Both the position numbers and the translations under genes were made by a program. This document shows, piece by piece, positions 16,274 through 64,000 of a stretch of DNA of 64,000 nt. The notes under the pieces are model-generated. The model did no database searches, was not told where the DNA came from, and was given only the letters and a program-made list of their open reading frames with translations. The stretch comes from Escherichia coli. GTDB taxonomy: Bacteria > Pseudomonadota > Gammaproteobacteria > Enterobacterales > Enterobacteriaceae. The first letter of the stretch is position 1; each line of letters starts with the position of its first letter. The stretch lies in assembly GCF_050320075.1 (NCBI RefSeq), contig NZ_CP190021.1; one strand, 5' to 3'.

Positions 16274-17482
16274 TCAGAATTCGTTGTCTGTAGCAGGTGT
16301 GCGGGGCAGGATGTCGTCGGTGAGGGACCAGTTGGTCAGGATGCGGCGTTTCCGGTCGCGATCTGGTTGTGGTTCATCCCAGATAAGACCGAGACTGAGC
16401 ATATCCCGCCGTAAGCCTTCCACCGCTTCATCAACACAGGGTTCAGGGCAGGGAAGGCCAAAACGCATGGCTTCGGCCTCTGCACGTGCAACGGCCACCA
16501 CGCCAGCGCCTTCAATAAATCCTTTCGTGGTATTGGCGCGGTGTAATGCATAAAACAGCGTCCTGTCCACGCCTTTCAGCCAAATCCAGTTGGGTGGCGT
16601 AAGCCGCAGGTCATGTGCATACAGCCAGACCAGCCCACTGCGGACGTAGCGATGTTGTTTCAGCCATTGCTGTGCTCCGTTGCTTTTAATCACTCTCTGG
16701 AAAGCTGATTTGGCCAGTGAATAAACAGGGGTACAGAATTTCCCACTGTCCCGTTTGCTTTTAATTCTGCATGAGAGGTTCAGTGTATCCATGAGCTTTA
16801 ATGCTGCCTTACGATCATCCAGGAAATACTGAAGACCAAATATGGCAAAGAGCGCTTTTTCATGTGGTGCCATGTCTTTCCAGGACGTTAAAGGTTTACC
16901 CAACTGGGCCATGAAACATCGTCTTGCAGCTGCAACATCGAGCTGCATATTGGTGATGAGAGTATGCTGCTCGACAAATGCTTCCGGGGTGAGAGCAACC
17001 CGCCGTTCAGGTCGTTTGCCACCATGAAAGAGTTTTTCCGGATCACCATCTGCCAGTACAGGGGCGATAGCAGGGGACAACGAAGCAAAGATGTATGGCA
17101 GGCGGGTAATATCTACTGGTCTGCGGGTGAAACGACTTTGTCCCGGATGTTGATACCACTCCCACAAACACCAGAGTGTCACAGGTAAGAGGTACATCCA
17201 CAGAATACCTATGGTCTGCTCCATGACGTTAACCCACTGGCTATAGCTTATGTTGGCGGCGTTGTTACCGGTCATGGCAAGCAGGTTGTATCGTGGTGCT
17301 GCATAGTTATGAAATGGTCCCCAGTCAACCAGTCCCCATAAGGTATGAAGAATCAGGCAGCTGGCGTAAACCACTTCCGGCAAGAATAACCATATAACGA
17401 ATAGCAGCAGGATAAGAAGGACACCAACAGCGCCCCATATCTGCATAGGATCTTCTGCGACAGGCTGTCGATTGTAAGACAT
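16274..17482 (-). CDS. trbA: TrbA inner-membrane protein (DotM/IcmP-like)
   Basis: 402 aa with N-terminal transmembrane helices; synteny. Confidence 0.75.
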   Translation of the reverse strand: MSYNRQPVAEDPMQIWGAVGVLLILLLFVIWLFLPEVVYASCLILHTLWGLVDWGPFHNYAAPRYNLLAMTGNNAANISYSQWVNVMEQTIGILWMYLLPVTLWCLWEWYQHPGQSRFTRRPVDITRLPYIFASLSPAIAPVLADGDPEKLFHGGKRPERRVALTPEAFVEQHTLITNMQLDVAAARRCFMAQLGKPLTSWKDMAPHEKALFAIFGLQYFLDDRKAALKLMDTLNLSCRIKSKRDSGKFCTPVYSLAKSAFQRVIKSNGAQQWLKQHRYVRSGLVWLYAHDLRLTPPNWIWLKGVDRTLFYALHRANTTKGFIEGAGVVAVARAEAEAMRFGLPCPEPCVDEAVEGLRRDMLSLGLIWDEPQPDRDRKRRILTNWSLTDDILPRTPATDNEF

Positions 17483-17770
17483 GACAAAGTCTCCATTTCT
17501 GGAATTTAAATCAAACGGAAAGGTTAAAAATTTATTTGCAGGCGATAAGAGCTAACCAGAGGAATTAGCCGTGTGATAAAAGGATTGTTGCAGATACGAA
17601 AGTCGTTAGAATAGCTGCGGGCGCTTGAGGCTGTATGCCGAAAGCGTTTTGTGGACGGTATACAGCAGAAAGCCCCTGGAGATTTTTTTATCAATCAACC
17701 AAGGGCTCTACTGTAATGCCTAGACAACATTATAGTAGCCCGATAACCGCCGTAAGGCAATGGAGGGGCT

Positions 17771-17926
17771 ATGATGCCACAGCGAACGTTTTTAATGATG
17801 TTAATCGTCATCTGTGTGACGATTCTGTGTTTTGTCTGGATGGTGAGGGATTCGCTTTGCGGACTCCGGCTCCAGCAGGGAAACACAGTGCTTGTGGCAA
17901 CGTTAGCCTACGAAGTTAAACGTTAA
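17771..17926 (+). CDS. pndA: Hok-family type I toxin PndA (51 aa), absent from the ORF track because it is under 60 aa
   Basis: Translation MMPQRTFLMMLIVICVTILCFVWMVRDSLCGLRLQQGNTVLVATLAYEVKR has the Hok/PndA architecture (transmembrane helix plus conserved Cys); GGAGG RBS; an overlapping upstream frame (17635-17919) fits a mok/pndC-like reading frame. Confidence 0.85.
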   Translation: MMPQRTFLMMLIVICVTILCFVWMVRDSLCGLRLQQGNTVLVATLAYEVKR

Positions 17927-17966: not shown

Positions 17967-18402
17967 CGAAGGCTGACCTCATTGCGCCCTTTCTTCTTCA
18001 ATGAAGCGTATCCGGTATTGTTTCATTTCCCCTGAAGCCGATTAGCTCCAGCCGAATGCCTTTGCCATCCGGGGCCACGTTCTGCATTTCGCAGATACCA
18101 CGTCGGGTCATGAGTGTGAAGGCTGTCATTGCCAGCATGGCTAACGCATTTTCCTCGCTTCCGCTGCGTTTCTCGAGAGCATCGGCAATTTATTCTATGC
18201 TCCCCACCTGAAAGCAAGAGTCGAATTCTTTACTCCACTTTTCTGACATCGGATTTTCTCTCTGTATTTATGGGTAGTTATCGAACTGAATGTGCCAGTT
18301 TTTTCAGGAGACGGCAAAGTTGAGATGGTTGGTTCTGATTCAAAGCATGAGTTTCCCCGGTGTGACGGGCATGTCGGGCGGATTTTGAGAAACAACAGAT
18401 GT

Positions 18403-18433
18403 AAAAAAACCGACTGGTGAGGTCGGTTTTTTT
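18403..18433. terminator. bidirectional Rho-independent terminator
   Basis: A-run, hairpin aaccgac-tggtgag-gtcggtt, then T7. Confidence 0.7.
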
Positions 18434-18457
18434 ACTGTTCCGTTACAGAGTGGGTGG

Positions 18458-18489
18458 CTCTGGTCGGAAAAGAACTGTCTATAACTGAC
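18458..18489 (+). repeat. 32-bp direct repeat, copy 1 (ctctggtcggaaaagaactgtctataactgac)
   Basis: Matches 18646-18677 at 31 of 32 positions. Confidence 0.9.
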
Positions 18490-34336: not shown

Positions 34337-37300
34337 TCATCGGCCGGGGCTGTGGGAGAGATCCTGATGCAGAGTTTTTTCCTGCCTGTCCTCCGGCTTT
34401 TGGCTGTTGGACCACTGCTGCCATGACTGCTCGAAGCCCAGGTTCCGGTACAACGCATCAGGTTGTTTTTCCGGCGTGTAGACAGCAGCAAAAAGCGGTT
34501 CTTCCCGGGTTTTCAGATGAAACTGCATAAGCTCCGGTGCGGGGCGATTCGTGCTGTCAGCATCGTGGTTTACCGCTTCACCATAACCTGCAAAGCGTAA
34601 ACCTTTGTCGGTCAGCGCATTGATAACCAACTGACTGTTGTCGGCCGATGGGGTGGCCAGTGCCGGATACAATGTGCCGTTCAGCCGGACCACACCCTGC
34701 AGATGTTCATCGGCACTCTGGACAAGTAGCAGGTTGAGTTCACGCGTATCCTTATCCACTGATCCCAGAACAGGTGTCAGCTTGTCAGGGGCTGCGCTGG
34801 TTATTTCTGTTACCTGATTTGCGTTCTGTGGCGCGGAGACCGGATGTCGGTCTTCACCGATAAACAGATGTGAGCCGACGTTTTCTGGCATACGTAACGC
34901 TTTCATCTCTTCGGGCCACCCCTGGCTGATTTGCGCAGCCACTTTCATAAAGGTTTCGACCGGAATCGCCTGAATACGCTGACCTTTATCCGGATTATCA
35001 TGTGATACCGAGATCCCGTTGGTAACTGACTCCATGGACCACTTATTCCGGAAACGTGCTTTTTGCTCACCAGGGAGAATGAATTGTTCGCGGTTCTGAA
35101 GTGTCAGTGTCACCACGTCACCTTTCTGATGGTTTTTGACCAGACTTTCCAGTTGTTCCCCCCAGTAGAGTTTGCTGCCACTGCGGTTTTTAAGCTCAAC
35201 AAAGAAACTCTCTCCTTTGCCGGGTGCATATTCAGCACGACCAAAATTGTGCAGTACGGCAGTCACGCTCTCTCCCGGGCGAAGTTTTCCTGGTGGTTCT
35301 TCACCTTGTGCCGCATCTGCCGTTTTGCCAGGTTCAGCCGGTGATGATGCAGGGACGGTGCTGACGGTTGATGCTTCAGGGGCAACTGGGGACGCCGGGG
35401 ATTGTGTGGCTTCTTTTTCCTGAACGGGGTCAGGGACAACCGGTTGTTCAGGGGTATTCCGGTTAAGTTCCGGCGTTGGCTGATGGGTGACAACAGCATC
35501 CTTACCGACAGCCATTTCCTTACGTAATGTATCGAGCTCCAGACGCTGATCAGCGTGTTTCATGCGCACATTGATGTTGTGCTCGATAATCAACCGCATC
35601 GCTTTTTGCTTAAAGGCATCACTGCCTGTCAGCTCAATGACGCCACCATAGAAATTAGTGGCCACAGCAAGTGCGGCCAGAACACTGCGATCGTCATTGC
35701 TGGCACCGTCGACCATTTCCAGCCGGTTTACCCGGTCAATGAAGGCTGGTTTGCCATCCAGCTTGTACAGGACGGTTCTGTCTGCTCGTTTTTCACCCTT
35801 CAGTGATTTTATGATTTCGTCCAGATTAAGCGATATCGGTGCATCAGGACGTTCCGGGGCGTAGACAATACTGTCAGGTGTCGGTGTGGTCGTCGTGGTT
35901 TCCGGTGAGGGCGTGGGATCACTGTTCTCATGTGCCTGTGAATCCGTTTTTTTACGCGTAAAAAAGCCACGCGCTTTGTCGAGAAACGATGAAGTATTAT
36001 CAGAAGGTGATGTGCTCTGAACAGGTTGCTGTGGATTGGGTTCATCCCGGACAGCCGGTTCTGCAGTATCTGTTGTGGCCTGAAGTTCTGACTCATCTGC
36101 CTGAACGTGGTCTGTGTCCGGTTGCGACGGCATATCACTGTTTTCCTGCAGATGCTCAGGATTTTCATTGTTCATCAGCTCCTGATATGCGCTGTAGTTT
36201 TCGTATTCTTCGGGGCCATCTGACTCAGGAAGGAACGGCTCTGGCTGAAGGGGAATGTCTTCAGTTACATGGCTGACCGCCTCTTCCCGGGGAGTATCCG
36301 GGGATATTCCGGTGCTTTGTTTGTCATCAGGCTCCGTCATCACGGTCATTTCCTCTTTGACTGCATCAGGGGAAGGTGATGGCTCGGCTGATTCATTCAT
36401 GGTTTCAGATGAGGGACTGTCTTCAGGGGATGCGGGGGCGGCAGCAGGGGCCGGTATTTCAGGTGAAGTGCCGGATTCCTGTTGTGACTCGTTTTTTTCC
36501 GGTTGTGACAGTTCGGCTTCAAATTCACGCCAGTCTTTATCTGTGGCCACCGAGACAACTTTTTCCGGAGGTTCCGCCGGATGAGCGGGTTCATCAGGGG
36601 CAGATGCCGTTGTACTTTCCGGGGACGCCGGTGATTCTGCAGGGGAGTCCTGAACTACAGAGCTTTCCGTTTGCGCCTGAACGTTATCAGCGTGCCGCTC
36701 ATCTTTGCCGTTATTTTCAGTGGCGTGACTGGTAAATGACTGTGTTTCGTCAGCAATGTTACTGCTGGAAGCAGCTGGTTGTTCCTGCTGCGTGGCGGAC
36801 GGCAGAGAAGGTCCCTGGTCATGGCTGTGCCCTGTATCGGGTGATGTTTCAGGATATTCTGTCGGAGTCATGGTTTTTTCCTCAGTGTGGACCGGTGTAA
36901 AAACGAGGTTGCCGATCACCAGTGCCTCGCGGATTTCCGGGGTGTTACTGTTGGGGGTGGAAACCCCGATGTGTTCTAACTGGGCGTTGATGACATGCTG
37001 AAAAGCGGCCCGTCCCCGGCTTGCGTCCAGGTCATTGAAATCGGTCAGCCCCTGCGCTTTTTCGGCATCGGTGAACGCAGGAAAGATGACCGTTCCTCCT
37101 GTCAGTTCTGCGGCTTTTGTTGCACTGACGATACCTTTGTTAACCCGGATTGCATGATCGTTGTCGGCACAGAAGATAAAGGGGCTTTGCGTCCACTTTT
37201 GCCGGGCATTTTCGGCAACGGCAATCATGTTGCCTCCATCCACCGTCATCAGTACCGGAAGGCCCGTGGCTTCGTGCAGGGAGGCCGCAGTGGCATAGCC

Positions 37301-38140
37301 CTCGGCAAACAGTACCGGCTGACCGTTGCGCGGTGTGCCCAGCGCAAACCAGTTACCGGTTTTCTCTGAATCTTTCAGGATGCGGGCATCCTTCCCCCCG
37401 GTGACCGGAATACGCTGGTAAGAGCGTATCGCGCCGTTACGGTTACTGAAGGGAATAACCAGTTCATTTTTGTTGTTTACCCGCACCCCCGGTGCAGCCT
37501 GAATGCCTTTCCGGGTCAGGTATTCATGTGCTGTGGCCTGCGGCCATTTGTTGACATAGCGGCGGGCATACGCGGCCTGTCGGTTGTACTGTGCTTTCAG
37601 TTCCCGCTCCGCGTCCTCCCTGCGTTGCATTGAATGCGCTTTCAGGTGGAGTCTTGCGCGGGGATCTGTCTGTTCTCCGCCGGAGAAGGTCCAGGTGATC
37701 GGCGAATCATCCGCGCTGCGATAATCCCTGTACCAGCCGGCAGGTCTGCCGTCCAGGAATCCGCGATATGCGCCACTTTTTTGTCCTTTTTTGTCATCGG
37801 CAGTCGGGACACGGTGGATTTTCCCGTCCATGACCGGCAGTTCTTTCAGAACCAGTCCGGCATTCTCCAGAACCTGGGCAAACTCGGTGACCGGATCACT
37901 GCCGTTCATGGAGACGTCCTGTGGCCGGGGCAGCCAGCGGTCCAGCCTGGACAGGTCCGCCCCCGGGCGGGCGAACCAGAGTTTGTGCTCCTTGTCCCAG
38001 ATGACGGGCGTGTGCCCGTTCATCGGGGGATGTGCTTTTTTGAGATCTTCTATTTCATCTGCAGGCACGGCAAGCCAGGTGCGGTAGCGGGATACAGACG
38101 GCATGAGTGCTTCTCCTGAAAAAAGACGGAAAAAAACCAC
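34337..38140 (-). CDS. sog: Sog DNA primase (SogL, 1267 aa) with Toprim primase domain and long acidic Pro/Ser/Thr/Glu-rich linker
   Basis: Primase motifs (LFAEGYATAASL, DGGNM, CADNDHA); about 450 aa of low-complexity acidic sequence; position between traL and traK. Confidence 0.9.
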   Translation of the reverse strand: MVFFRLFSGEALMPSVSRYRTWLAVPADEIEDLKKAHPPMNGHTPVIWDKEHKLWFARPGADLSRLDRWLPRPQDVSMNGSDPVTEFAQVLENAGLVLKELPVMDGKIHRVPTADDKKGQKSGAYRGFLDGRPAGWYRDYRSADDSPITWTFSGGEQTDPRARLHLKAHSMQRREDAERELKAQYNRQAAYARRYVNKWPQATAHEYLTRKGIQAAPGVRVNNKNELVIPFSNRNGAIRSYQRIPVTGGKDARILKDSEKTGNWFALGTPRNGQPVLFAEGYATAASLHEATGLPVLMTVDGGNMIAVAENARQKWTQSPFIFCADNDHAIRVNKGIVSATKAAELTGGTVIFPAFTDAEKAQGLTDFNDLDASRGRAAFQHVINAQLEHIGVSTPNSNTPEIREALVIGNLVFTPVHTEEKTMTPTEYPETSPDTGHSHDQGPSLPSATQQEQPAASSSNIADETQSFTSHATENNGKDERHADNVQAQTESSVVQDSPAESPASPESTTASAPDEPAHPAEPPEKVVSVATDKDWREFEAELSQPEKNESQQESGTSPEIPAPAAAPASPEDSPSSETMNESAEPSPSPDAVKEEMTVMTEPDDKQSTGISPDTPREEAVSHVTEDIPLQPEPFLPESDGPEEYENYSAYQELMNNENPEHLQENSDMPSQPDTDHVQADESELQATTDTAEPAVRDEPNPQQPVQSTSPSDNTSSFLDKARGFFTRKKTDSQAHENSDPTPSPETTTTTPTPDSIVYAPERPDAPISLNLDEIIKSLKGEKRADRTVLYKLDGKPAFIDRVNRLEMVDGASNDDRSVLAALAVATNFYGGVIELTGSDAFKQKAMRLIIEHNINVRMKHADQRLELDTLRKEMAVGKDAVVTHQPTPELNRNTPEQPVVPDPVQEKEATQSPASPVAPEASTVSTVPASSPAEPGKTADAAQGEEPPGKLRPGESVTAVLHNFGRAEYAPGKGESFFVELKNRSGSKLYWGEQLESLVKNHQKGDVVTLTLQNREQFILPGEQKARFRNKWSMESVTNGISVSHDNPDKGQRIQAIPVETFMKVAAQISQGWPEEMKALRMPENVGSHLFIGEDRHPVSAPQNANQVTEITSAAPDKLTPVLGSVDKDTRELNLLLVQSADEHLQGVVRLNGTLYPALATPSADNSQLVINALTDKGLRFAGYGEAVNHDADSTNRPAPELMQFHLKTREEPLFAAVYTPEKQPDALYRNLGFEQSWQQWSNSQKPEDRQEKTLHQDLSHSPGR

Positions 38141-38193
38141 CGCCGGAAGCCGGGGGTGGCTGGGGGGATAGAAAATCGGGGGAGAAATGTTTG

Positions 38194-38745
38194 TCAGGGT
38201 TTCCAGTCTGTACCCTTATTCCAGCGATCCTGCCAGTGTTCAAGATATTGTGCGGCTACATCCGGCATATTCTTGAGCACAACGACATTCTCTGAATTCT
38301 TGCGTGCAGCAGCACGAGAGAAGTTATAGGAGCCAGTTTCAACCGTGTTTCCGTCAACAATGATGACTTTGTCGTGATGGATGGGGAAGGCATCTACAGT
38401 CCGGAGAGGAATGTCCAGCAGGTTGATATATTTCATCGCTTCCTGACTTGCCCGGTTCGTATTCCCCTTGTCATCAACAACAATACGGACGTCCACTCCG
38501 CGTTTTTTCGCTTTTGCCAGCGCATGCATTACATCCGGGTCGGTGAAGGAATATGCCATCATCCTGATGGAGCTTTCCGCACTGTTGATTGTGTCAAGCA
38601 CCAGAGCGGATGCGCTTCCTTCAGGAGAAAAGCCGACCTTCACGGATGGCGTGTCGATCATTGCAAACGATGGTGTCGTGAACAGTAACGGGCATGCCAG
38701 TAGCGATACCCGGAGCAGAGTAACGATAGTTTTTTTACCTGACAT
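38194..38745 (-). CDS. nuc: phospholipase-D-family endonuclease (Nuc-like), secreted
   Basis: Start at internal ATG 38745 giving signal peptide MSGKKTIVTLLRVSLLACPLLFTTPSFA; HKD motif HHDKVIIVDG..GSYNFS. Confidence 0.8.
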   Translation of the reverse strand: MSGKKTIVTLLRVSLLACPLLFTTPSFAMIDTPSVKVGFSPEGSASALVLDTINSAESSIRMMAYSFTDPDVMHALAKAKKRGVDVRIVVDDKGNTNRASQEAMKYINLLDIPLRTVDAFPIHHDKVIIVDGNTVETGSYNFSRAAARKNSENVVVLKNMPDVAAQYLEHWQDRWNKGTDWKP

Positions 38746-38759
38746 AAAGACTCCAGAAT

Positions 38760-39050
38760 TTAATCGAGGCCAGTCCAGTCTCGTGGTGATTCCGTATGGT
38801 GGCGATACCACCATGGACGACCGGAGGCGATGGCCCCTCTCAGAATGCTGAAAATGCGTGTACAGATAGTCCTGACAGTCCAGCCTGAACGGTCGAGAAT
38901 AACGAAAAATAAAATGATGCCGGTGCAAATCCAGAAGGTTGTTTTGGAGGGAAAGGGGCATATAAACAGATAAATCATGGTGAACGGCAGAGGTACGCCC
39001 TGGATGTTGACTGGCGGTGTTGCATATCGCCAGAAACCTTCTCTTTTCAT
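38760..39050 (-). CDS. traK: TraK small membrane protein (IcmT-like, 96 aa)
   Basis: 96 aa with transmembrane helix, ATGA-type overlap with traJ stop; alternate frame to the spurious N-extension of nuc. Confidence 0.6.
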   Translation of the reverse strand: MKREGFWRYATPPVNIQGVPLPFTMIYLFICPFPSKTTFWICTGIILFFVILDRSGWTVRTICTRIFSILRGAIASGRPWWYRHHTESPRDWTGLD

Positions 39051-40195
39051 GACCGTAACTCCCCTGGCGGGATAAAAAGAATCGCTTCTCTTCGGTCAAC
39101 TTCATTCCGGATATACATTTCCAGAATCTGGTCCCGGATACGGCGCTTCTCCTGCCGGATTATGGCATCAATGTGATGCCCCCACTCTGCATGCGGCATT
39201 CCGGAAAGATTGTCGCGAAGCTCATCGTTAATGACGATATATTCCCGGACGGCTTTACGACCACCGTCATTTGTTCTGACCAGAACCTGAACCAGAATGA
39301 ACTGCAACAGTGACAGGACAGCCCAGGCCATCGAATCCCTGATGACAGGGGGAAACAGCCCAAGAAGACGTGCCAGCGTTTCACCAGGAGATTTCGTATG
39401 CATGGTGCTCAGGCAGTAATGCCCGGTGTTGCCTGCCTGTACCGCTGCGTCGGCGGTTTCGTTATCCCTGATCTCACCAACACCGATAATTTCGGGATTA
39501 CGTCGTACAGCAGAACGCAGTCCGGCAGCAAAACTGACCACATCACGCCCGATTTCTGCCTGATGCGGTGGGAGCAGATCGTTTTCATTTCCCAGGATAT
39601 ATTCCACCGGGTCTTCATATGTCACGATTTTGGCGTCGGGGAAATTGTCCATAATGTAACGGTACAGTGCTGAACACAGCGTTGATTTTCCTGACCCGGT
39701 TTCACCACATACAAATCCCAGACCGCTTTTGCAGACCATTGCTTCAAGCAGGTCTGGTTCAATGTTCATGGAGAGAATGTCCGGTATTTCTGTCGGGATG
39801 ACACGCATGGTTATTGAGATTGCTTTCTCCTCCGCACCAGATGTGCCCTGAATGAGGTGAGAGCGTAACCGGATGCGTTCTCCGCGTTTAAGACCATAGC
39901 GCCCGGATGCATCCCCGTTAATCTGTATCGTCCTGTCAACCGGATTGCCTGCCAGAACGCGGGGAATGACTTCCCGACCGAACAGTTCATCAATCAGGGA
40001 GGACATGAGTGTGGTTGGTAACGTTGCACTGGAACAACGCACCCGTCGGCCAAAGCGACTGACAGATACAGGTGACCCGCCGGTCAGATCCACATCACTG
40101 ACTTTATGTGCGGCACACCAGACAAAGAAATGCCGTAGTTCATCTGCAGTGAAACGCTGAAACGGAAAAAGACCAAACTCATCAGGAATATTCAT
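39047..40195 (-). CDS. traJ: TraJ, VirB11/DotB-like secretion ATPase (382 aa)
   Basis: Walker A GETGSGKST; size matches. Confidence 0.9.
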   Translation of the reverse strand: MNIPDEFGLFPFQRFTADELRHFFVWCAAHKVSDVDLTGGSPVSVSRFGRRVRCSSATLPTTLMSSLIDELFGREVIPRVLAGNPVDRTIQINGDASGRYGLKRGERIRLRSHLIQGTSGAEEKAISITMRVIPTEIPDILSMNIEPDLLEAMVCKSGLGFVCGETGSGKSTLCSALYRYIMDNFPDAKIVTYEDPVEYILGNENDLLPPHQAEIGRDVVSFAAGLRSAVRRNPEIIGVGEIRDNETADAAVQAGNTGHYCLSTMHTKSPGETLARLLGLFPPVIRDSMAWAVLSLLQFILVQVLVRTNDGGRKAVREYIVINDELRDNLSGMPHAEWGHHIDAIIRQEKRRIRDQILEMYIRNEVDRREAILFIPPGELRS

Positions 40196-41010
40196 CGGGA
40201 GCCTCCTTCAGTGCCTATAAGCGGACGCCAGTGAGATTTCTGAAGATTGAATTCCGCATGATTTTTAAGGCGACGAACACGATCTCCAGTGACCAGTTTT
40301 TTCCCGTCACCTGTAACGGTTTGCATTTGATCAGAAACATCCGGACGGGTGATCATGCCCTGACGCCAGAGAAGTGAGTACAGCATCATGCCCCGGTAAT
40401 CACGGGTGAGGGTTTTCTGGTTGGCTTCAAGCGTCAGGTCGGCGTTTTGTCTTCCTTCCTGCCATCCCTGCCGTAATGCGGTTTCCCACACTTTTCGTTG
40501 CACGCTGTCTTCTGGAACGACGCTGCCTTCTGTACCCGGAGTGGCTGTTGTTGAAAGCCCCCGGAGAAGCCAGTCACGCCAGCCCGGTGGATTGCTGACA
40601 AAGCGTTCAGGGCGAATGATGGTCCAGACCCGGGAAGAGGTCCGGATTTGATCTGGCGTGATATGAGCTACGTCCTGTGCTTCATCAATAACCGGTGGTA
40701 GCCAGCCTTCCGGGCTAATCAGTGGCCGGAAATCGTATAAGGCATTAAGTGTGCTTTCCCGGGCGTTGAGCGCCTGAATCAGCTCCCATGAACGCTGAGC
40801 CTTGCCACCACGAAATCCAAGCGTTTTACCTGCGTCTGTCAGCATTTTCCAGCGTGTTTCTGACAGACTATCCGGCTTTTCACTTCGTGGTTTAAGCCAT
40901 GCATTAATGTCAGGTGGTGGCGTATTGACACCACCTGGCGAGATGGTAGGGGAAGAAGAACAACCAGTAAGCAGTATTACTGGCAAAAGGAGAGAGGTGA
41001 GTGCTTTCAT
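40192..41010 (-). CDS. traI: TraI lipoprotein (DotC-like)
   Basis: Lipoprotein signal LLTGCSS; 272 aa. Confidence 0.8.
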   Translation of the reverse strand: MKALTSLLLPVILLTGCSSSPTISPGGVNTPPPDINAWLKPRSEKPDSLSETRWKMLTDAGKTLGFRGGKAQRSWELIQALNARESTLNALYDFRPLISPEGWLPPVIDEAQDVAHITPDQIRTSSRVWTIIRPERFVSNPPGWRDWLLRGLSTTATPGTEGSVVPEDSVQRKVWETALRQGWQEGRQNADLTLEANQKTLTRDYRGMMLYSLLWRQGMITRPDVSDQMQTVTGDGKKLVTGDRVRRLKNHAEFNLQKSHWRPLIGTEGGSR

Positions 41011-41465
41011 TTTTTCCGGTTCTCCGGCTGCATGAAGCTGACCTGTAACAAGCCCGGATATTGATGGATTGTTGCTCTCCAGGCTGTCTGGGCTTCAATA
41101 AGTCTCAACGTATTGGAAAACGTCATATCCCGGACGTGAAGGTTGACTGGTAACGGCAGGCGGACACCATTGTAGTTAAACTGCATCCCCCTGACTCTGG
41201 CCAGTTCGTTCAGTAATTCAATTGCATCACCTTCCCAGTCAAAGGAAAGGCGATCGCTGTTAGCTGTCAGAAGATGAGACCCCGTTGAAACCGGAAGTTG
41301 GCCGGAAAATACACCTTTGTCCCATAATGTGTACTGAGTGTGCCGGGTAACCGCCACATCAGAGGCAGCACCGTAGTTACGCGGAACAGGAGTATGCTGA
41401 GAAGGGGAGTTGCAGCCAGCCAGAAAAAGGGCGGCAAGACACCCCGCAGGTATAATACGGTTCAT
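41007..41465 (-). CDS. traH: TraH lipoprotein (DotD-like)
   Basis: Lipoprotein signal FLAGCNS; 152 aa. Confidence 0.8.
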   Translation of the reverse strand: MNRIIPAGCLAALFLAGCNSPSQHTPVPRNYGAASDVAVTRHTQYTLWDKGVFSGQLPVSTGSHLLTANSDRLSFDWEGDAIELLNELARVRGMQFNYNGVRLPLPVNLHVRDMTFSNTLRLIEAQTAWRATIHQYPGLLQVSFMQPENRKK

Positions 41466-41671
41466 AATAATTCCTGAGCAGTTAAATCAGAATGGGATAT
41501 ACCGGTGCTCCGGTACAGACAGGATGATGTTTGTTTCCGGCTATACTTGCGTTACCGGAAATAAATGCCAGTGTGGCCAGGTAAATAGCCTCATAGTTTA
41601 CTGAAGGTGATTATTCCTGATACTGGCTGGTTGATGTGTCGTCAGACATAAAACGAATATGAGCGTAATCT

Positions 41672-41798
41672 TTAACGCTCCGCGCCGAATCGATCCATGA
41701 TGGATGACTCGACGATTTATGAATCGAACGTACCGGCGCTTGTCCCTGAAACAGTTCCCGGCCCTCGTCCGGATAACCTGCAATTCAGACAGGCACAT
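41672..41798 (-). promoter_or_regulatory. bipartite conserved leader element, copy A, upstream of traH
   Basis: Box 1 ttaacgctccgcgccgaatcgatccatgatgg and box 2 ctgcaattcagacaggcacat recur at 62169-62292 and 63231-63361. Confidence 0.5.
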
Positions 41799-41859
41799 GT
41801 GCCCGTACACTCTTGTATCTTACTGAGTATATCAGAATTTATGTAAATTCAAATATCCT

Positions 41860-42444
41860 CTATGCCTCTTTGTTGTATTTTCCGTCAAGTATGAGCCGGG
41901 TACCATCGTAATGCATGATCAGGGCATCAAGGTACGCCGGTTTGAATTTCTTGCCGAGCCTATCTCTGGCCAGAAATGATAAACAATGATTATGTGTCAT
42001 TATTACTATGTTCCTTTTATGAGATTCTCTTGCGATTGATTCAAGCGTCTTATAAAGATCATTATTGCAGTCTGATAAACTGTCCATAACGACGGGTTCT
42101 TTACCGGAGAAGAATTTTGCAGTTTGTATGGTTCTTACCGCATTGCTGGAGTAAATATCATATTCACTGAAGATTGTTGCGAACTTAATACCTTCCTGCT
42201 GTGCTTTCTCTGTACCGGTAATAGTGATTCCGCTTTTATCCGAATAGCATGGCATATCTGAACGGTCGCAACGTTCTCCATGGCGGAAAAGGAAAATAAC
42301 GGTGTTATCAGCATTAATTTCTTTTGCCTGTTCCAGGGTGATATCGGGAAGCGAGCTTTTTGCTTTTGTCACTGCCGCTACCAGGAAAACAGAAAATAAA
42401 AGAATGAATGCTGTTTTTGAATAAGAAGAACGTGGTTTCATCAT
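41860..42444 (-). CDS. traG: histidine phosphatase (phosphoglycerate-mutase-like) family protein with signal peptide, at the traG position
   Basis: RHGER catalytic motif (LFRHGERCD); N-terminal signal peptide; symbol is positional only. Confidence 0.55.
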   Translation of the reverse strand: MMKPRSSYSKTAFILLFSVFLVAAVTKAKSSLPDITLEQAKEINADNTVIFLFRHGERCDRSDMPCYSDKSGITITGTEKAQQEGIKFATIFSEYDIYSSNAVRTIQTAKFFSGKEPVVMDSLSDCNNDLYKTLESIARESHKRNIVIMTHNHCLSFLARDRLGKKFKPAYLDALIMHYDGTRLILDGKYNKEA

Positions 42445-62892: not shown

Positions 62893-63230
62893 AGCAAAGG
62901 TCTCCGATGACAACTAAAAACGCTATCACCGAGTTCCTACGCTCATTGGTGATAGCCCAGACGGGGGTAGGAATACCGGCGTCATCGGAAACCGGCCAGG
63001 CTAATGCCTGCCCCGCCTGAGCTACCATAGATGACGACAAGAAATACAAGTTCCTGTCTTTATGGTATGGCAAAAAACGACGCCAAATGAAGAAATTAAC
63101 TTCTGCGCCGACGATGACTACGCGGGTTCCTACGCCCGATCACAGTTTTGCCTGTGACCAGTAAAGGGTACTTAGTATAACGCACCGAGTCAACTAACAG
63201 CTTAAAAAACATACAAAAAAGCGTCAAAAC

Positions 63231-63884: not shown

Positions 63885-63950
63885 AAGGAAAACCCCCACT
63901 ATCTTTCTTACGAACTTGGCGGAACGACGAAAGATAGTGGGGGCCTCACA
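63885..63950 (-). ncRNA. candidate antisense Inc RNA of an IncI/IncB-type replicon, complementary to the repZ-leader stem-loop I; rep genes would lie beyond the window end
   Basis: + strand stem cccccactatcttt / aaagatagtggggg (63893-63943) with a 23-nt loop containing TTGGCG, the recalled target-loop motif of ColIb-P9-type copy control. Confidence 0.4.
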
Positions 63951-64000
63951 GAATACGGGTAAAGTATAATGAAACCGTACCAGAGATTCAACCCTGTGCA

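Follow-up and report, generated by a model that had tools for sequence, protein, structure and literature searches.

The nuc Gene in the Transfer Cluster of an IncI1 Plasmid: A Known HKD Nuclease Predicted To Be Exported and Accessory to Conjugation

Introduction

Why would a conjugative plasmid keep a gene for a small, putatively secreted nuclease in the middle of its transfer cluster? The gene in question lies between sog and traK on an Escherichia coli plasmid, within a stretch of 64,000 nucleotides that was analyzed as a whole and is referred to here as the window (contig NZ_CP190021.1, RefSeq assembly GCF_050320075.1). A sequence-only reading of this DNA had proposed that the gene encodes an endonuclease of the phospholipase D (PLD) family with a signal peptide, and that such a protein could act against incoming competing DNA. 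The joint best explanation of our observations, to which we assign a probability of about 95%, is that this conjugative plasmid belongs to IncI1/I-gamma, that the gene is its nuc, with a sequence identical to R64 nuc, and that it encodes a nuclease of the HKD type which by homology would be exported and which is accessory to the transfer cluster.

Identity and Boundaries of the Gene

The open reading frame runs on the minus strand from an ATG at position 38745 to a TGA at position 38194 and translates into 183 amino acids. The gene, its ribosome-binding site, and its two neighbors are placed as follows.

38194..38745, minus strand: nuc coding sequence, a 183-residue precursor plus stop codon; a PLD-superfamily HKD nuclease, the same as R64 Nuc (WP_000014583.1)
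38751..38754, minus strand: ribosome-binding site GGAG of nuc, 5 nt 5' of the ATG and within the 14-nt traK-nuc spacer, as read from the sequence
38760..39050, minus strand: traK (IcmT/TraK family, 96 aa), which adjoins nuc upstream and fills the interval of the spurious extension discussed below
34337..38104, minus strand: sogL primase gene, which adjoins nuc downstream and encodes Toprim, LPD7, and DUF5710 domains

The window protein is identical to R64 Nuc at 183 of 183 positions. WP_000014583.1 is the same RefSeq protein in R64 and in pFORC44_1, and the start annotated by NCBI in identical plasmids is the same ATG. The coordinates 38194-38745 given by the sequence-only reading are therefore correct. 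The program-made list of open reading frames also contains a 303-residue frame (38194-39105) that extends nuc upstream and overlaps traK. The sequence-only reading had dismissed this extension, and we agree, since traK occupies the interval in another frame, the extra 120 residues have no Pfam match, and the NCBI start is at 38745. Two plus-strand open reading frames opposite nuc (38374-38688 and 38468-38851) also gave no Pfam match. No Rfam family matched in or near the nuc locus, and a consensus scan of 37500-41500 found no sigma-70-like promoter on the minus strand.

The plasmid context is equally familiar. A 1401-bp region around nuc matches 1371 PLSDB plasmids in all, 1018 of them at an identity of at least 99%. 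The hosts of the 1371 plasmids belong to Escherichia, Salmonella, Shigella, and Klebsiella, and 1328 of these plasmids are typed as conjugative. Among them, the example records have a MOBP relaxase and a transfer system of the I type (MPF_I), and they are typed as IncI1, IncI-gamma/K1, or IncI1/B/O. Gene order in the window follows that of pFORC44_1 through psiB, ardA, nikAB, trbABC, pnd (Hok/Sok-type), excA, traY to traL, sog, and nuc, and, beyond nuc, through traK to traE, rci with the shufflon, and pil. The feature is the already described, named nuc gene of IncI1 plasmids, of which R64 is one example, and it is not new; the sequence-only reading had missed this identity. None of our observations speaks against the identification.

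Elsewhere in the window, Rfam models matched several regulatory RNAs. A sok antitoxin RNA (17619-17776, plus strand) is part of the pnd/Hok-type locus, and an AgrB antisense RNA (18401-18488, minus strand) adjoins the dqlB type I toxin. A C4 antisense RNA was found at 62945-63032 on the minus strand (77.5 bits against a gathering score of 45), about 850 bp before the repZ replication-control pseudoknot, which itself matched at 63885-64000 (PK-repZ, plus strand) and is cut by the end of the window. C4 antisense RNAs are known from phages P1 and P7, where they belong to the immunity regions.

Nuclease Family and Catalytic Motif

The protein matches the Pfam family PLDc_2 (PF13091) with E = 1.1e-27 and 96.9 bits against a cut-off of 27, and the match covers profile positions 2-132 of 132. 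Among solved structures the best match is Nuc from pKM101 (1byr/1bys, E = 1.1e-62), with an ungapped alignment in which 101 of 150 residues are identical (67%). Mouse and fly Zucchini/PLD6 and NucT from Helicobacter pylori follow as weaker matches. An assignment as the NucT equivalog was rejected, as the scores of 30-51 bits compare with model cut-offs of 211-351. The chain contains a single copy of the PLD signature HxK(x)4D(x)6GSxN, at residues 124-141.

38323..38376, minus strand: HKD catalytic motif HDKVIIVDGNTVETGSYN, codons 124-141, found by regular-expression match; H124-D-K126-VIIV-D131-GNTVET-G138-S139-Y-N141

With an offset of 30, this motif maps to residues 94-111 of pKM101 Nuc, where the corresponding residues are H94, K96, D101, S109, and N111. 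To examine conservation we used an alignment of the window protein with seven plasmid homologues, which comprised two proteins from IncN plasmids, one from IncFII(K), three from plasmids with F-type (MPF_F) systems (Serratia, Yersinia pestis, and Burkholderia), and one from an IncL/M-like plasmid with an MPF_I system. These homologues are 48% to 62% identical to the window protein. Residues H124, D125, K126, D131, G138, S139, and N141 are invariant in all eight sequences, and so is the segment N150-S-E-N153. The earlier assignment as a Nuc-like endonuclease of the HKD type is thus borne out by the PLDc_2 match, the match to 1byr, and the single intact HKD motif. That reading had named a lack of conservation at the catalytic HKD residues as the observation that would speak against it; since none of H, K, D, GSxN, and NSEN varies among the eight homologues, this objection falls away.

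Export Signal

The N-terminus of the precursor has the features of a substrate of the Sec pathway, as the sequence-only reading had noted.

38662..38745, minus strand: predicted Sec signal peptide MSGKKTIVTLLRVSLLACPLLFTTPSFA, codons 1-28, based on hydropathy, the -3/-1 rule, and homologue alignment

Charged residues (K4, K5, and R12) precede a hydrophobic core (V13-F22) and a putative cleavage site S-F-A|M at positions 26-29. Cleavage by signal peptidase I after A28 is predicted to release a mature protein of 155 residues and about 17.2 kDa. This site aligns with PAFA|VEPSV in the IncN Nuc precursor, and the 155-residue crystal chain of 1byr corresponds to residues 23-177 of that precursor and starts right after A-F-A. 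The predicted site of the window protein therefore coincides in the alignment with the mature N-terminus of 1byr. All eight homologues have a variable hydrophobic N-terminus that ends in a small-x-small site. These rules and the alignment together suggest that the window Nuc is cleaved after A28 and exported. The stretch L15-L16-A17-C18 resembles a lipobox, and we considered that the protein may be a lipoprotein. This candidate was rejected because R12, six residues before the cysteine, breaks the hydrophobic stretch and because Cys18 is not conserved, being absent in seven of seven aligned homologues.

Proposed Enzyme Mechanism

Enzymes of the PLD nuclease family work as symmetric dimers whose active site lies where the two subunits meet, and a histidine makes the nucleophilic attack, which gives a phospho-histidine intermediate (PMC5714352). 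Nuc itself is active on double- and single-stranded DNA and has a wide basic groove (PMC5714352). From the 67% identical pKM101 enzyme and from the family at large we infer the following mechanism for the window Nuc, which appears well grounded by homology. The precursor would be exported by Sec and cut after Ala28. Two mature subunits of 17 kDa would then associate to a homodimer and form a single active site from their two HKD motifs. There, one His124 would attack the phosphodiester to give a phospho-histidine, while the other His124 would protonate the leaving group. As for pKM101 Nuc and the PLD family, catalysis should proceed without a metal ion, hence the name "EDTA-resistant nuclease" in the annotation of pESBL (PMC4288162). 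The wide basic groove would accept single- and double-stranded DNA without sequence specificity. In its most likely role, the enzyme would degrade nucleic acid that reaches the periplasm or the surface of plasmid-bearing cells.

Genetic Context

The sequence-only reading had placed nuc in a type IVB transfer cluster, with sog and traK on either side, and inspection of the neighboring genes bears this out. Upstream, TraK matches the IcmT/TraK model with E = 1.3e-9 and 38.1 bits, slightly under the cut-off of 40, and beyond traK lie traJ and traI. TraJ scores 585 bits with the plasmid_TraJ model and also matches DotB. Several flanking products are Dot/Icm-like, namely TraK (IcmT), TraM (DotI/IcmL), TraY (DotA), and, according to the annotation of the sister plasmids, TraN (DotH/IcmK), so that type IVB is a fair label. 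Downstream, the annotated start of sogL (ATG 38104) has an AGGAG ribosome-binding site, and the listed open reading frame starts at GTG 38140. We favor the annotated ATG because the GTG lies inside a hairpin in the 89-nt gap between nuc and sogL.

38130..38161, minus strand: terminator-like hairpin followed by U7, 32 nt past the nuc stop and 25 nt before the sogL ATG at 38104, found by folding

The hairpin (GCCACC-C-CCGG CUU CCGG-C-GGUGG) is imperfect, with 9-11 pairs and a CUU loop, and its U7 tract is followed by more U. A simple scan missed it because of the internal mismatch, and folding recovered it. The fold energy of the nuc-sog region is -24.7 kcal/mol against -17.8 ± 2.6 kcal/mol for shuffled sequences (z = -2.7). 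The second IncI1 allele of nuc keeps the hairpin and carries a change in the loop only; the traK-sog spacer of sister plasmids without nuc contains no such hairpin. With its ribosome-binding site, open reading frame, and terminator-like element, nuc looks like a small cassette. The hairpin sits within what is usually drawn as a single long transfer operon.

Two further observations concern neighboring genes. From the translation, the central third of Sog is a long acidic, low-complexity stretch rich in Pro, Ser, and Thr that lies between the Toprim primase part and LPD7. On the other side of nuc, traG (histidine phosphatase, about 41860-42444) lies between traF and traH, an interval that is annotated as empty of genes in two sister I-complex plasmids. 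In pESBL, traG is largely dispensable (PMC4288162). Because traG is missing from the sister annotations and is largely dispensable, the cluster seems to contain it as a second accessory insert beside nuc. In the area around 41470-42200, the non-coding gap of about 395 bp between traG and traH borders a dip in GC content to about 0.39-0.40, with the minimum at the beginning of traG (41800-42400). A promoter for traH-I-J-K-nuc may lie in this gap.

Distribution and Accessory Status

According to tblastn, at least 5000 plasmids carry a homologue of nuc, and 4533 of the 5000 records with the best scores are typed as conjugative (about 91% of these records). A full-length copy with at least 95% amino acid identity is present on about 1326 plasmids (tblastn). 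The sampled homologues lie mostly inside or at the edge of transfer regions, at several different sites. On IncN plasmids nuc directly follows a virB11-type ATPase gene at the end of the type IV secretion operon. On plasmids with F-type systems the homologue is located between traI and traX, after finO and dsbA beside repA, or inside the stretch from traC to traW. An IncL/M-like plasmid whose transfer system is of the I type has the homologue after trbC.

Two sister I-complex plasmids lack nuc at this position, and their traK is joined to sog by a 63-nt spacer. One of them is typed as IncI-gamma/K1 and is only about 68% identical to the window in traK-traJ; the other is IncK2/Z. From this direct join we conclude that the IncI1 lineage carries nuc as an accessory insert. 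On the whole IncK2/Z plasmid pSFE199, tblastn found no PLD nuclease. This plasmid encodes a thermonuclease of the SNase family (WP_000598957.1, 167 aa) with a signal peptide, and its gene lies between trbA and excA (17157-17660 of the stretch examined). A recent foreign insertion of nuc was considered on the basis of base composition and rejected: the GC content of nuc is 0.49-0.50, the same as that of traK and traJ, and there is therefore no compositional signal.

The published work on transfer agrees with this picture. Transposon sequencing of pESBL listed an "EDTA-resistant nuclease, Nuc" between SogL and TraK as neutral for transfer with a probability of 1.00 (PMC4288162). In the traH-Y region of R64, nuc, traS, and traH are the sole non-essential genes, and in pESBL only nuc is dispensable (PMC4288162). 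A study of pCTX-M3 counts nuc among the genes of the R64 transfer region and places nuc of IncM plasmids away from the tra region (PMC6112013). The natural absence of nuc from the sister I-complex plasmids fits the dispensability reported for R64 and pESBL. Nuc is an accessory passenger of the transfer cluster and does not belong to the secretion machine. The gene is nonetheless under purifying selection: a comparison of two IncI1 alleles showed 7-8 synonymous and 3-4 non-synonymous differences, which gives a pN/pS of 0.13-0.16 from these small counts.

Possible Biological Roles

Full-text literature searches returned no published role for nuc beyond its being dispensable for transfer, and two readings of its function survive better than the others. 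According to the first, Nuc forms a periplasmic barrier that destroys incoming DNA from competing plasmids, from transformation, or from phage, and in this way provides exclusion or defence complementing ExcA. The predicted periplasmic site and the non-specific activity on single- and double-stranded DNA would permit such a function (PMC5714352). The 4533 conjugative plasmids among the 5000 best-scoring homologue records would point in the same direction if they reflect a strong enrichment, and so does the location of homologues within transfer regions, or next to them, on plasmids of three mating-pair-formation (MPF) types. The unrelated signal-peptide nuclease with an SNase fold on the nuc-less IncK2/Z plasmid hints at convergent recruitment, and the fold of Nuc is common to the DISARM defence protein DrmC. 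On the other hand, the literature that we searched contained no experimental support for a barrier, entry exclusion of IncI1 plasmids is attributed to ExcA, which is encoded in the cluster of the window, and DNA in transfer is believed to travel inside a channel and not loose in the periplasm. Reportedly, Winans and Walker found in 1983 that pKM101 nuc mutants are unchanged in any known plasmid phenotype, which also counts against a barrier. Finally, NucT of H. pylori affects transformation only mildly (PMC5714352). On balance we consider a barrier function a doubtful, tentative proposal.

The second reading places the function on the side of the donor or of the community. Nuc would clear extracellular or periplasmic DNA without effect on standard laboratory matings, and its targets could be transfer intermediates gone astray, the extracellular DNA of mating aggregates and biofilms, or nucleic acid taken up for nucleotide salvage. 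That nuc directly follows traH-K in the transfer cluster suggests co-expression with these genes, and its being dispensable in plate matings (PMC4288162) is in keeping with this reading. An involvement of NucT in purine salvage (PMC5714352) and the presence of secreted nucleases of two folds in I-complex transfer regions also agree with it. Against it stands the sequence itself, which does not indicate release of the protein beyond the periplasm. We regard this role, too, as a speculative one on which we would place little weight.

A more general idea combines several of these elements. Secreted nucleases might be a convergently recruited accessory of conjugative plasmids that acts as a periplasmic barrier to rival plasmids, transforming DNA, or phage, and the hairpin between nuc and sog might tune the expression of nuc relative to the downstream transfer genes. 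The examples are the PLD-type Nuc in IncI1, IncN, and F-type-transfer plasmids and the SNase-type enzyme in an IncK2/Z plasmid. In this full form we judge the idea unlikely.

The remaining two readings deny the protein its place among the Nuc enzymes, and both can be regarded as effectively excluded. The RefSeq name of the protein is only "phospholipase D family protein" and it has weak, sub-threshold matches to cardiolipin synthases, so that a phospholipase or cardiolipin-type lipid enzyme could be envisaged in place of a nuclease. This assignment is highly improbable given that the chain contains only one HKD domain, that 67% of its residues match those of pKM101 Nuc, for which DNA nuclease activity has been demonstrated (PMC5714352), and that it reaches only 19-27 bits with cardiolipin synthase models for which the cut-offs are 281-787. 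Less credible still is a DrmC-type nuclease of a DISARM-like multigene defence system. PADLOC DrmC models match down to E = 2e-17 and the NCBIfam DrmC model with E = 1e-12, a similarity at the level of the fold, but the score with NF038319 is 48 bits against a cut-off of 133, the neighbors are all transfer genes with no drmA, drmB, or methylase gene among them, and DrmC is cytoplasmic whereas the window Nuc has a predicted signal peptide.

Significance

As a finding, the gene matters little: it is named, it occurs in more than 1000 sequenced plasmids, its structure is understood from that of a close relative, and transfer proceeds without it. Its interest lies in being a conserved, selected, and predicted-exported nuclease on thousands of conjugative resistance plasmids. 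The nuc-bearing plasmid types IncI1, IncN, and IncFII(K) carry genes for extended-spectrum beta-lactamases and carbapenemases. If Nuc were indeed a barrier to incoming DNA or phage, a function in plasmid competition or defence would be added to very common resistance plasmids.

Comparison with Known Systems

The closest counterparts are the nuc genes of the IncI1 plasmids R64, ColIb-P9, and pESBL (Komano et al. 2000; Yamaichi et al. 2015, PMC4288162), from which the window gene does not differ; it is the same gene. In R64, pFORC44_1, and pESBL, nuc occupies the same slot between traK and sogL in the traH-Y block, with the same flanking genes.

Nuc from the IncN plasmid pKM101 (PDB 1BYR/1BYS; Stuckey and Dixon 1999) is 67% identical over the mature protein and has the same HKD, GSxN, and NSEN residues. 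The cleavage sites of the two precursors align and both would yield a mature protein of 155 residues, but the signal peptides differ in sequence and in length (28 residues in the window Nuc, 22 in pKM101 Nuc). The genetic settings also differ. In IncN plasmids nuc comes last, after the virB11-type ATPase gene of a VirB-like (type IVA) system, whereas in IncI1 plasmids it lies within a Dot/Icm-like (type IVB) cluster that goes on downstream with sog and traL-Y. A further likeness is that IncN nuc is followed by a strong hairpin and U8, as IncI1 nuc is by the hairpin and U7.

H. pylori NucT (PDB 6EHI) and Zucchini/PLD6 (4GGJ, 4GEL) have in common with the window Nuc the single-HKD PLD nuclease fold and the motif. 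NucT, which is periplasmic or associated with the membrane, likewise carries a signal peptide (PMC5714352). Both are distant from the window Nuc (E = 1e-8 to 1e-9), and neither is associated with plasmids or with conjugation. Unlike Nuc, NucT and Zucchini favor single-stranded substrates because their groove is narrower.

The SNase-family enzyme of pSFE199 resembles Nuc in being a small signal-peptide nuclease encoded in the transfer region of a related I-complex plasmid, one that lacks nuc. It differs in its unrelated fold (Pfam SNase) and in its site between trbA and excA. Nucleases of this staphylococcal type are Ca2+-dependent. The pSFE199 enzyme may be a non-homologous functional analogue of Nuc.
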